Assembly (NCBI RefSeq): GCF_013315695.1
Contig: NZ_CP054353.1
Strand: one strand, 5' to 3'
Length of the DNA stretch: 64,000 nt
From: Escherichia coli
GTDB lineage: Bacteria; Pseudomonadota; Gammaproteobacteria; Enterobacterales; Enterobacteriaceae
Shown: positions 23,208-64,000 of the stretch, one piece after another
Layout: the number at the start of each line of letters is the position of its first letter
How positions within the stretch are numbered: position 1 is the stretch's first letter
Program-made: the position numbers and the translations under genes
Notes under the pieces: model-generated
What the model saw: the letters and a program-made list of their open reading frames with translations, nothing else
What the model was told of the DNA's origin: nothing
Database searches by the model: none

Positions 23208-23479
23208 TACCGTTGTCTCTCGTCCAGGTTTACTCCTGATAGAAAGTCATCGGCACTTGACGGTAATTACTTATGACCAAAAACCTCTTTGCGTCACATT
23301 TTTACAACAATTATGGCAGAGAAGAATAATGCCATTGGAATGAAGAGAGTAACGAACGGCTAAACCGAATGACGAAAAATTCTGGAAAACAGCACGCAAT
23401 TTCGTCAAGTGATTATTTTCGTCCCTAAGGAAACCTCATAGGATGCCTGCGGGTGCCTGAGACTTTCTGTTTTCAGGCT

Positions 23480-23538
23480 AACCGGGAATCAGAAAGACGA
23501 AGGCCCCGACCGATATTTCTATCAACCGAGGCCAACGA

Positions 23539-23545
<7 letters not shown>
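23480..23545 (-). ncRNA. sokB: Putative SokB antisense RNA (position approximate)
   Basis: Inferred from hok/sok organisation: antisense to the mokB leader; not resolved directly in sequence. Confidence 0.3.
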
Positions 23546-23746
<201 letters not shown>

Positions 23747-24161: not shown

Positions 24162-24225
24162 CTTCCGATGTAGGCCCGTATTCTTCGCCTGTACCACGGG
24201 TCGGTTTTAGTACAGGCGTTTTCTT
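24162..24225 (+). ncRNA. rydC: RydC small RNA (pseudoknot sRNA)
   Basis: CTTCCGATGTAGGCCCGTATTCTTCGCCTGTACCACGGGTCGGTTTTAGTACAGGCGTTTTCTT between ydcA and cybB, matching my recollection of RydC. Confidence 0.6.
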
Positions 24226-48448: not shown

Positions 48449-48476
48449 ATGCTCTGGATAAGGATCATCCAATTCT

Positions 48477-48571
48477 AAAAAAAAGCCCGGACGACGGTTC
48501 GGGCTTGTCTCATTATTTGTTGGATAAACAGTAACAAGGGTCCAACAGAAAATAATCTTTGTGACAATAAA
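48477..48571 (-). ncRNA. micC: MicC small RNA (OmpC-repressing), with its intrinsic terminator
   Basis: Minus-strand GTTATATGCCTTTATTGTCACA... 5' seed, ending in hairpin GCCCGAACCGTCGTCCGGGC plus T-run; between ydbK and ompN as in K-12. Confidence 0.6.
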
Positions 48572-48838
48572 GGCATATAACCCGCGAAGAATAACGCATC
48601 ACTATTTAAATGTATAATTTTTATTTTGTATATGTCGCCAACAATATATTCACCAGACTTATTATCATTTCAGAAGAATTATTTGATTAAGGTTTTACTT
48701 AAGGCGTAACAAATAATATTTATCGTCTAACTGAACTTCTCCTTTAGGATGCTTTCACTCCCCGAAATGGGGATAAAAGGCAAGGTGATGCTGCCAACTT
48801 ACTGATTTAGTGTATGATGGTGTTTTTGAGGTGCTCCA

Positions 48839-59994: not shown

Positions 59995-62595
59995 ATGAGC
60001 ACAAAACCACTCTTCCTGTTACGGAAAGCGAAAAAATCATCCGGTGAACCTGACGTCGTCCTGTGGGCAAGCAACGATTTTGAATCGACCTGTGCCACTC
60101 TGGACTACCTGATCGTTAAGTCAGGTAAAAAACTGAGCAGCTATTTTAAAGCTGTTGCCACGAATTTTCCTGTCGTTAATGACCTGCCCGCTGAAGGTGA
60201 GATCGATTTTACCTGGAGTGAACGCTATCAACTCAGCAAAGACTCCATGACATGGGAACTAAAACCGGGAGCAGCACCAGACAACGCTCACTATCAAGGC
60301 AATACCAACGTCAACGGCGAAGACATGACTGAGATTGAGGAGAATATGCTACTCCCAATTTCTGGCCAGGAACTGCCCATTCGTTGGCTTGCTCAACACG
60401 GCAGCGAAAAACCGGTAACGCACGTTTCACGCGACGGACTCCAGGCATTACACATTGCTCGGGCTGAAGAACTACCGGCTGTTACTGCCCTGGCTGTTTC
60501 CCACAAAACCAGCCTGCTCGACCCGCTGGAAATTCGCGAACTCCACAAACTGGTTCGTGACACTGACAAAGTTTTCCCTAATCCTGGTAATTCAAACCTG
60601 GGACTGATAACTGCTTTTTTCGAAGCATACCTGAACGCTGACTACACCGATCGAGGACTGCTGACAAAAGAGTGGATGAAGGGTAATCGTGTTTCACACA
60701 TCACTCGCACGGCTTCCGGTGCTAATGCTGGCGGCGGAAACCTCACCGATCGCGGCGAAGGTTTCGTACACGATCTGACGTCACTGGCGCGCGACGTAGC
60801 CACTGGCGTACTGGCCCGTTCAATGGATCTGGACATCTATAACCTTCATCCGGCACACGCTAAACGCATTGAGGAAATTATCGCTGAAAATAAACCGCCC
60901 TTTTCTGTTTTCCGCGACAAATTCATCACCATGCCTGGCGGGCTGGATTATTCCCGCGCCATCGTGGTTGCGTCCGTAAAAGAAGCACCAATTGGGATCG
61001 AGGTCATCCCCGCGCACGTCACTGAATATCTGAACAAAGTACTGACTGAAACCGATCATGCCAACCCTGATCCGGAAATCGTGGATATTGCCTGCGGTCG
61101 CTCCTCTGCCCCGATGCCGCAGCGAGTAACAGAAGAAGGAAAACAGGATGATGAAGAAAAACCGCAACCATCTGGAACAACGGCAGTTGAACAGGGAGAG
61201 GCTGAAACAATGGAACCGGACGCAACTGAACATCATCAGGACACGCAGCCGCTGGATGCTCAGTCACAGGTAAATTCTATTGATGCGAAATATCAGGAAC
61301 TGCGGGCAGAACTCCATGAAGCCCGGAAAAACATTCCATCAAAAGATCCTGTCGATGCCGATAAATTGCTTGCTGCATCACGTGGTGAATTTGTTGACGG
61401 AATTAGCGACCCGAACGATCCGAAATGGGTAAAGGGGATCCAGACTCGCGATTGTGTGTACCAGAACCAGCCAGAAACGGAAAAAACCAGCCCGGATATG
61501 AATCAACCTGAGCCAGTAGTGCAACAGGAACCGGAAATAGCCTGCAATGCCTGCGGCCAGACTGGCGGGGATAACTGCCCTGACTGTGGTGCGGTGATGG
61601 GCGACGCAACATACCAGGAAACATTCGATGAAGAGAGTCAGGTTGAAGCTAAGGAAAATGATCCGGAGGAAATGGAAGGCGCTGAACATCCGCACAATGA
61701 GAATGCTGGCAGCGATCCGCATCGCGATTGCAGTGATGAAACTGGCGAAGTCGCAGATCCCGTAATCGTAGAAGACATAGAGCCAGGTATTTATTACGGA
61801 ATTTCGAATGAGAATTACCACGCGGGTCCCGGTGTCAGTAAGTCTCAGCTCGATGACATTGCTGATACTCCGGCACTATATTTGTGGCGTAAAAATGCCC
61901 CCGTTGACACCACAAAGACAAAAACGCTCGATTTAGGAACCGCTTTCCACTGCCGGGTACTTGAACCGGAAGAATTCAGTAACCGCTTTATCGTAGCACC
62001 TGAATTTAACCGCCGTACAAACGCCGGAAAAGAAGAAGAGAAAGCGTTTCTGATGGAATGCGCAAGCACAGGAAAAACAGTTATCACTGCGGAAGAAGGC
62101 CGGAAAATTGAACTCATGTATCAAAGCGTTATGGCTTTGCCGCTGGGGCAATGGCTTGTTGAAAGCGCCGGACACGCTGAATCATCAATTTACTGGGAAG
62201 ATCCTGAAACAGGAATTTTGTGTCGGTGCCGTCCGGACAAAATTATCCCTGAATTTCACTGGATCATGGACGTGAAAACTACGGCGGATATTCAACGATT
62301 CAAAACCGCTTATTACGACTACCGCTATCACGTTCAGGATGCATTCTACAGTGACGGTTATGAAGCACAGTTTGGAGTGCAGCCAACTTTCGTTTTTCTG
62401 GTTGCCAGCACAACTATTGAATGCGGACGTTATCCGGTTGAAATTTTCATGATGGGCGAAGAAGCAAAACTGGCAGGTCAACAGGAATATCACCGCAATC
62501 TGCGAACCCTGTCTGACTGCCTGAATACCGATGAATGGCCAGCTATTAAGACATTATCACTGCCCCGCTGGGCTAAGGAATATGCAAATGACTAA
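59995..62595 (+). CDS. recE: Exodeoxyribonuclease VIII (RecE), full-length 866 aa
   Basis: 866-aa ORF with acidic central region and C-terminal nuclease domain; directly followed by overlapping recT. Confidence 0.9.
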
Positions 62596-63397
62596 GCAAC
62601 CACCAATCGCAAAAGCCGATCTGCAAAAAACTCAGGGAAACCGTGCACCAGCAGCAGTTAAAAATAGCGACGTGATTAGTTTTATTAACCAGCCATCAAT
62701 GAAAGAGCAACTGGCAGCAGCTCTTCCACGCCATATGACGGCTGAACGTATGATCCGTATCGCCACCACAGAAATTCGTAAAGTTCCGGCGTTAGGAAAC
62801 TGTGACACTATGAGTTTTGTCAGTGCGATCGTACAGTGTTCACAGCTCGGACTTGAGCCAGGTAGCGCCCTCGGTCATGCATATTTACTGCCTTTTGGTA
62901 ATAAAAACGAAAAGAGCGGTAAAAAGAACGTTCAGCTAATCATTGGCTATCGCGGCATGATTGATCTGGCTCGCCGTTCTGGTCAAATCGCCAGCCTGTC
63001 AGCCCGTGTTGTCCGTGAAGGTGACGAGTTTAGCTTCGAATTTGGCCTTGATGAAAAGTTAATACACCGCCCGGGAGAAAACGAAGATGCCCCGGTTACC
63101 CACGTCTATGCTGTCGCAAGACTGAAAGACGGAGGTACTCAGTTTGAAGTTATGACGCGCAAACAGATTGAGCTGGTGCGCAGCCTGAGTAAAGCTGGTA
63201 ATAACGGGCCGTGGGTAACTCACTGGGAAGAAATGGCAAAGAAAACGGCTATTCGTCGCCTGTTCAAATATCTGCCCGTATCAATTGAGATCCAGCGTGC
63301 AGTATCAATGGATGAAAAGGAACCACTGACAATCGATCCTGCAGATTCCTCTGTATTAACCGGGGAATACAGTGTAATCGATAATTCAGAGGAATAA
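62588..63397 (+). CDS. recT: Single-strand annealing protein RecT (269 aa)
   Basis: Start set at [28 protein letters not shown]; overlaps recE stop (ATGACTAA). Confidence 0.9.
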
Positions 63398-63453
63398 TTC
63401 AGCCTGGCGGTGTAATGCACCGCCAACTTGAAATATTTTTTATGAGAAAAATT

Positions 63454-63648
63454 ATGAGATATGACAATGTTAAACCATGTCCATTTTGTGGTTGTCCATC
63501 AGTAACGGTGAAAGTCATTTCAGGATATTACCGAGCGAAGTGTAACGGATGCGAATCCCGAACCGGTTATGGTGGAAGTGAAAAAGAAGCACTCGAAAGA
63601 TGGAATAAACGAACCACTGGAAATAATAACGGAGGTGTTCATGTATAA
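63454..63648 (+). CDS. ralR: Restriction alleviation protein RalR/Lar (64 aa)
   Basis: Start set at MRYDNVKPCPFCGCPSVTVKV; Cys-rich motif. Confidence 0.7.
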   Translation: MRYDNVKPCPFCGCPSVTVKVISGYYRAKCNGCESRTGYGGSEKEALERWNKRTTGNNNGGVHV

Positions 63649-63829
63649 AATTACCGCCACTATTGAAAAGGAAGGTGGCACTCCTACTAACTGGACAAGA
63701 TATTCAAAATCTAAACTAACGAAATCAGAATGCGAAAAAATGCTCTCAGGTAAAAAAGAAGCAGGCGTTTCCAGAGAGCAGAAAGTAAAACTGATAAATT
63801 TTAATTGCGAGAAACTTCAGTCCTCGTGA
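63641..63829 (+). CDS. ydaC: Rac prophage protein YdaC (62 aa)
   Basis: Start set at MYKITATIEKEGGTPTNW, overlapping ralR stop. Confidence 0.6.
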   Translation: MYKITATIEKEGGTPTNWTRYSKSKLTKSECEKMLSGKKEAGVSREQKVKLINFNCEKLQSS

Positions 63830-63928
63830 ATTGCATTGTATTCAAATTAAAACTTCATAGCTGATTATTAATAATCAACATCGGGCGTCAATTTCAGTCT
63901 AACATTGGCGCCTGCCAGAGGTGATGCG

Positions 63929-64000
63929 ATGGCACAAGTAATCTTTAATGAAGAGTGGATGGTTGAATACGGCCTGATGCTTCGCACTGGTCTGGGGGCC
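63929..64000 (+). CDS. xisR: Rac prophage excisionase-like protein, 5' partial (runs off window end)
   Basis: ATG at 63929: MAQVIFNEEWMVEYGLMLRTGLGA... Confidence 0.5.
   Translation, partial: MAQVIFNEEWMVEYGLMLRTGLGA

Follow-up and report, generated by a model that had tools for sequence, protein, structure and literature searches.

The closest described relative of the locus analysed here is the RalR/RalA system of the Rac prophage in Escherichia coli K-12 (ralR, b1348; ralA, b4714; RNA family RF02694), reported by Guo et al. in 2014 (PMC4041452). In that work RalR, when overproduced, is a toxic, non-specific DNase that also cuts DNA in vitro, its toxicity being reduced by mutation at residues 14, 37, 39, 49, 51 and 52 (PMC4041452). 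The proposed antitoxin is a small RNA, RalA, encoded opposite the neighbouring gene ydaC (also called rcbA): ydaC DNA with a destroyed start codon or an early stop still neutralises RalR, RalA supplied alone in trans from pBAD protects the cells, and mutation of a 16-mer within RalA ends this protection, which is then restored by matching mutations in ralR (PMC4041452). Upon neutralisation RalR protein drops with little change in ralR mRNA, and Hfq is required; ydaC itself is said to make no protein, none having been seen by western blot, and the rcbA phenotype is put down to loss of RalA (PMC4041452).

RalA has been detected in K-12 by qRT-PCR and was found in all eight conditions of an independent K-12 RNA-seq study, with no significant change between them (PMC12266141); perturbing RacR brings a rise of over 70-fold in early genes of Rac, ydaC and ralA reads included (PMC6765115). 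Searching the literature for RIL-seq or transcription-start-site evidence on RalA, we found the original paper, one review and a single RNA-seq study in which RalA was constitutively detected, and nothing else. The window—the whole 64,000-nt stretch of E. coli DNA that was analysed—holds, close to its end, a locus with the same genes as that of K-12, in the same order, on the same strands and between the same flanks (recT and xisR).

The ralR/ralA locus in its prophage setting

The final 4 kb of the window are taken up by the left arm of a Rac-type prophage, in which recE (59995–62595) is followed by recT (ending at 63397), ralR, ydaC and xisR (beginning near 63929); the prophage context, including the immunity genes/region, is also seen in an otherwise identical genome. 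Alignment of the region with the Rac prophage of K-12 MG1655 gives 680 identical bases out of 683, leaving three differences—a resemblance that reflects homology and not chance. Directly past the recT stop codon there is also a G+C-rich hairpin with a 7-bp stem (63406–63426, +; GGCGGTG TAATGCA CACCGCC), with a T-run some 12 nt 3′ of it and directly before ralR; the structure could partially terminate transcription between the two genes or serve there as an RNA-processing element.

The ralR coding sequence occupies 63454–63648 (+), with its ATG at 63454 and its stop at 63646–63648, and encodes a protein of 64 amino acids (MRYDNVKPCPFCGCPSVTVKVISGYYRAKCNGCESRTGYGGSEKEALERWNKRTTGNNNGGVHV) without an internal stop or frameshift; five cysteines are present, in the arrangement CxxC...CxxC. 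RalR scores 52.8 bits against Pfam PF14354 (Lar_restr_allev; cut-off 28.6), 54.9 bits against TIGR03655 and 163.4 bits against the NCBIfam equivalog NF007260 (cut-off 113), the last match covering residues 1–64 of 64; searches of the PDB with the RalR and YdaC sequences gave nothing useful, RalR having no relatives there. Compared with K-12, the protein is identical at 63 of its 64 positions. As the sole substitution is A21V, resulting from C>T at 63515, the residues linked to toxicity (14, 37, 39, 49, 51 and 52) are all as in K-12; a second difference, T>C at 63630, is synonymous at N59 and lies outside RalA. Residue 21 is A in K-12, V in the window and D in three other alleles (L003, L004 and L011), with the V21 form in the minority: its exact 61-mer occurs in 58 of the 1818 genomes holding the segment.

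An Rfam scan of positions 60000–64000 produces a single match, to RF02694, which spans the full model (positions 1–179) and scores 225.1 bits (gathering score 170; E 7e-55); scanning the entire window at the gathering threshold recovers it again. The model was made from near-identical E. coli sequences, so that its score gauges how alike the sequences are and is not an independent measure of structure. The match places the gene for the 179-nt sRNA antitoxin RalA at 63647–63825 (−), with its 5′ G at 63825 and its 3′ end at 63647. Curated ralA of K-12 (b4714; NC_000913.3 1413556–1413734), which lies on the opposite strand inside rcbA/ydaC, maps exactly onto 63825–63647, and the two RNAs are identical at 179 of 179 positions, all three base differences lying outside RalA.

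A sequence-only reading of this DNA had described a 64-residue, cysteine-rich Lar/RalR frame overlapping ydaC and had left open whether the antitoxin is intact, offering an alignment with K-12 ralR–ralA as the check. The frame is borne out by the matches to PF14354 and NF007260 and by the five cysteines, and the overlap by the 8 nt (ATGTATAA) that the two genes share, the ydaC start at 63641 lying inside the end of ralR; the span assigned to the pair, 63454–63829, is exact, running from the ATG of ralR to the TGA of ydaC. The alignment, now run, finds ralA intact at 63647–63825 (−)—an outcome which, as that reading had itself said, makes the finding unremarkable. K-12 RalR/RalA was likewise the right reference, with one refinement: RalA is antisense to ydaC, not to ralR, and acts in trans (PMC4041452). 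Here, just as in K-12, it lies within ydaC (63641–63829, +), and its overlap with ralR is confined to the final 2 nt of the stop codon; it is probably because RalA opposes ydaC, rather than ralR, that no antisense partner was seen by eye.

Given the full-length Rfam match, the exact correspondence with b4714, the identity of 680 bases in 683 and the equivalog match of the protein, we are confident that the window carries a complete module of the K-12 type, the mechanism of which is taken from K-12 and assumed to operate likewise here. The locus is the already-known RalR/RalA system of K-12 Rac, and an ordinary example of it. Of 5426 complete E. coli genomes, 1921 have the ralR–ralA segment, 1411 of these with a RalA that matches the window copy at 99% identity or more; with a textbook Rac locus found in about a third of complete genomes, the value as a discovery is small.

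The annotation of this segment is less complete than its content. PGAP has annotated ralR and the DUF1187 open reading frame (ydaC), and not ralA, in NZ_CP026755.1 and other RefSeq records (L002–L009 and L015), the ncRNA being listed only in the curated MG1655 record among those compared. A missing ralA annotation in RefSeq E. coli consequently says nothing about presence, for which an Rfam scan is needed. Elsewhere in the window, the other Rfam matches at gathering level are the sok antitoxin RNA at 23451–23602 (+; 109 bits), marking a hok/sok-type locus, RydC at 24162–24225 (+; 90.5 bits) and MicC at 48469–48584 (−; 104 bits).

Transcription signals, pairing elements and RNA structure

In K-12 the 5′ end of RalA was placed by primer extension on plasmid RNA, from an insert ending at the ydaC stop, and the plasmid used for this mapping contained just 25 bp of native DNA upstream of +1 (PMC4041452). 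On the minus strand of the window, the sequence leading into +1 (G at 63825) runs ...TTTGAA TACAAT GCAATTCAC G, in which we read by eye a likely −10 hexamer, TACAAT (63835–63840, −), 9 nt upstream of the mapped start and lacking a good −35. In the divergent alleles L005–L007 the hexamer has become the consensus TATAAT through G>A at 63838, which supports TACAAT as a plausible −10 for ralA.

The search of the minus strand for a promoter and terminator, which the sequence-only reading had also proposed, was productive in part. It yielded a promoter-like element, TTGACG-16-AATAAT (63864–63891, −; 10 of 12 matches in the consensus scan), approximately 32 nt upstream of the RalA 5′ end, while the RalA promoter itself was not reported by the generic promoter scan, and the generic terminator scan reported no terminator at the RalA 3′ end. 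The element is not kept in L005–L007; judging by its position, it could belong to a longer RalA precursor or could be a regulatory site for xisR/intR. It also overlaps a perfect palindrome, ATTATTAATAAT (63865–63876), in the spacer between ydaC and xisR.

At the 5′ end of RalA, both the MFE fold and the Rfam consensus structure contain a predicted stem-loop (nt 2–39; 63787–63824, −), a hairpin described in the K-12 study as stabilising (PMC4041452). A second hairpin is predicted at the 3′ end (63647–63680, −), formed by nt 146–171 with a 6-bp stem and a 14-nt loop and followed by GUAAUUUU; identical to that of K-12, it is proposed to act as a weak Rho-independent terminator, the 3′ end of RalA in K-12 being itself predicted and unmapped (PMC4041452). 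The terminator scan passed over this hairpin because a 14-nt loop with only four U is not covered by the rules of the scan.

The target of RalA in the ralR mRNA lies at 63576–63591 (+), a 16-nt element (AAGTGAAAAAGAAGCA) identical to that of K-12, which comprises nt 123–138 of the coding sequence and runs from the third position of codon 41 through codon 46 (G-S-E-K-E-A). Its partner is nt 63–78 of RalA (63748–63763, −; 5′-UGCUUCUUUUUUACCU-3′), encoded 157 nt from the target site; AAGTGAAAAAGAAGCA in ralR and TGCTTCTTTTTTACCT (minus strand) in RalA are the wild-type sequences of the K-12 study (PMC4041452). Between the two there are 11 contiguous Watson–Crick pairs, and 15 of the 16 positions pair if G.U is counted.

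A local scan (30 nt) returns this published site as the best RalA:ralR duplex, at −19.8 kcal/mol, a strength not above chance: of 100 versions of RalA shuffled with dinucleotides preserved, 59 form a duplex at least as stable (mean −20.5, sd 2.1). A full-length RNAduplex calculation for RalA against the ralR mRNA was discarded, having given an unrealistic end-to-end duplex. With the pairing energy at chance level, the interaction is not one that sequence alone can establish, and it rests on the compensatory mutants made in K-12. Nor does the RNA stand out otherwise: its MFE against shuffles has z = −0.26, giving no structural signal, and covariation of the Rfam structure among the E. coli alleles plus three distant DUF1187 loci is no better than in slid controls. 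Pairing, fold and structure of RalA are thus without a statistical signal of their own. [quoted passage not shown]

The ydaC reading frame and its natural variation

Turning to the strand opposite RalA, the ydaC/rcbA frame (DUF1187; 63641–63829, +) encodes 62 amino acids and ends in a TGA at 63827–63829. Its product scores 132.2 bits against Pfam PF06688 (cut-off 20.7), covering profile positions 1–61 of 61, and 138.7 bits against NCBIfam NF007283 (cut-off 92). Measured against allele L007, the frame contains nine synonymous differences and one non-synonymous difference, and against homologues of 59–65% amino-acid identity pS is 0.69–0.88 and pN 0.22–0.24. dN/dS is about 1 or above in the two other + frames and in frame −2, and 0.63–1.05 in frame −0; frame −1, the mirror of the coding frame, has the lowest values of these (0.19–0.49). 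The alignment of DUF1187 proteins also shows conserved motifs. These comparisons show strong purifying selection on the ydaC frame, which is therefore probably a genuine protein gene, contrary to what was claimed in 2014; the selection pattern conflicts with its published non-coding status. Most likely, a protein gene and, in the Rac lineage, an antisense RNA share this segment.

The DUF1187 family is narrow, found mainly in E. coli and Shigella, with members at 59–69% identity, among them one from Klebsiella oxytoca. The distant homologues, carried by other prophages (L010, L011, L013 and L014), lie directly before xis/int genes wherever those fall in the fetched stretch, and upstream of them a Dam-like methylase or an unrelated ORF can replace the Lar gene. 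At L011, the only distant locus with both Lar and DUF1187, the complementarity between RalA and ralR is absent, the longest common word being 8 nt and located elsewhere; the Rfam RalA model reaches just 24–36 bits at the distant loci.

The third difference from K-12, A>T on the + strand at 63827, creates the stop codon of ydaC seen here by changing its codon 63 from AGA to TGA, giving 62 amino acids in place of the 69 of K-12 (which would end at 63850); on the other strand it is at −2 of the RalA start and outside the RNA. A disabling nonsense mutation was considered here and rejected, as the 62-residue form spans all 61 positions of the Pfam model and outside K-12 is the common allele. The exact 61-mer with T at 63827 occurs in 575 of the 1784 genomes holding the segment, and numerous genome annotations, O157:H7 among them, list the 62-residue protein (WP_001302840.1). 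We conclude that the shorter frame is a normal allele and not a lesion; the 69-residue rcbA of K-12 may be a read-through variant.

For the most part, the natural variants of E. coli would still allow RalA to pair with ralR. Two synonymous changes in ralR, 63584 A>G (L009) and 63591 A>G (L003), produce G.U pairs with RalA. Three findings speak against the pairing model. In L005–L007 the flank of the duplex is weakened. L003 and L009 both have a ydaC-synonymous G>A at about RalA nt 168 (window ~63658) that breaks a G-C pair in the terminator stem, which suggests little selective constraint on the proposed terminator hairpin. In the mouse isolates M3, M8 and M18, a 12-nt in-frame deletion in ydaC has taken away the pairing core and left ralR intact; in M3 (L002, NZ_CP010183.1), where ralR is K-12-like, the deletion is at ~613–614, corresponding to window 63756–63767, and removes the GAAGCA... 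core. Judged by their genomes, these three isolates seem to live with the toxin gene although the antitoxin has lost its pairing site. The converse arrangement is found in two strains: O157:H7 F3113 (L004) has a ralR pseudogene with an internal stop, together with a full-length RalA that differs from the window copy at two positions, and 2013C-4187 (L008) has a truncated ralR (W51stop, 49 aa) with a RalA region identical to that of the window. These RalA copies are orphan 'antitoxins'.

Mechanism and related systems

If the K-12 findings carry over, RalA would act with Hfq, pairing through its nt 63–78 to codons 41–46 of ralR and thereby lowering RalR protein; by analogy, the module would be expected to work in the same manner in this strain. 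We infer further that ralA would be transcribed weakly and constitutively from the TACAAT −10, that ralR would be mostly silent within a repressor-controlled early-left operon, and that the DUF1187 ORF on the + strand would also be a real protein gene, its DNA held in common with ralA. Nothing speaks against the identity and intactness of the module; the mechanism is less secure, and a site 123 nt into a coding sequence is an unusual place for translational repression.

One could instead suppose that DUF1187 (RcbA) is the main selected product, with RalA a young, lineage-specific antisense transcript whose 16-nt match to ralR is largely fortuitous and matters only on overexpression, so that there is no genuine addiction module in vivo. 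As a whole we regard this as possible but rather unlikely, even though a good deal of the comparative evidence leans towards it: the 11-nt identical core falls where both ORFs use identical codons for (E/K)-K-E-A; the ydaC frame has its nine-to-one ratio of synonymous to non-synonymous differences against L007, its excess of pS (0.69–0.88) over pN (0.22–0.24) and its conserved protein motifs; DUF1187 is present without a Lar gene, L011 is without complementarity, and the Rfam RalA scores at the distant loci are only 24–36 bits; pairing energy, fold and covariation are not significant; and the in-frame deletion of M3, M8 and M18 removes the pairing core from strains with an intact ralR. Against it stand the K-12 genetics, namely ydaC start and stop mutants that still neutralise RalR, the 16-mer mutation with its compensation, protection by RalA in trans, the need for Hfq, and the failure to see YdaC by western blot (PMC4041452). 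Saying this, protein and RNA roles are not mutually exclusive; were RcbA indeed the principal product, the published non-coding claim for ydaC would be wrong and the type I behaviour an overexpression effect.

It is also conceivable, if improbable in our estimation, that RalR is mainly a Lar protein, helping unmodified incoming or recombining DNA to escape type I restriction, rather than a toxin, and that RalA merely tunes an early-left gene. Membership of the family by PF14354 and TIGR03655, the location of ralR directly after recE–recT in the early-left operon and an earlier restriction-alleviation assignment cited by Guo et al. (PMC4041452) all fit such a role; the K-12 study, however, saw no restriction alleviation and found toxicity and DNase activity instead (PMC4041452). 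The change at 63827 raises a separate question, as the sole difference from K-12 near ralA is 2 nt upstream of +1: the antitoxin might be present but weakened, with the output or start choice of its promoter altered and RalR under-controlled. On the minus strand the change is T to A at the favoured 7-nt distance from TACAAT, from which one might infer that the start could shift by 2 nt. Such a weakening strikes us as very improbable, since the −10 hexamer and the entire RNA are unchanged, two added 5′ nucleotides would leave the pairing site at nt 63–78 untouched, the T allele is the common one outside K-12 (the exact allele occurring in 575 of 1784 genomes, many with intact ralR), and its 62-residue product matches the full 61-position Pfam model. 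To our knowledge, moreover, −2 belongs to no recognised sigma-70 contact element. We accordingly keep to the complete, K-12-type module as the preferred reading.

Set beside K-12 RalR/RalA itself, this module shares all 179 nt of RalA, both 16-nt elements and 63 of the 64 residues of RalR, and differs in A21V, the synonymous change at N59 and T at 63827 (ydaC of 62 rather than 69 aa). With lambda Ral and the other Lar/Ral proteins (PF14354, TIGR03655), RalR has in common its family, by profile, and the same lambdoid early-left position; identity to lambda Ral is only 24%. Compared with DUF1187/RcbA, the double-strand break reduction protein (PF06688), the ORF in the window has a full-length profile match and protein-like substitutions; RcbA is 69 aa in K-12 and 62 aa here, and the protein denied by Guo et al. 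(PMC4041452) is suggested by our comparative data.

Amongst type I systems, TisB/IstR-1, ShoB/OhsC and ZorO/OrzO resemble RalR/RalA in that the antitoxin RNA adjoins the toxin gene without overlap and pairs over 16–21 nt (PMC4041452). Their toxins are small hydrophobic membrane peptides and the pairing is in the 5′ UTR, whereas RalR is a soluble zinc-ribbon protein and reported DNase, with pairing deep in the coding sequence and a need for Hfq (PMC4041452). The hok/sok type, in which a cis-antisense RNA overlaps the leader or coding sequence of the toxin mRNA, does not describe RalA, which overlaps its toxin gene by only 2 nt at the 3′ end. RalR/RalA here is a type I system of the trans-encoded subclass with limited complementarity, not of the hok/sok type, and on every feature open to in silico testing—equivalog match, full-length RNA model, pairing elements and arrangement—the locus is a member of the K-12 RalR/RalA system.
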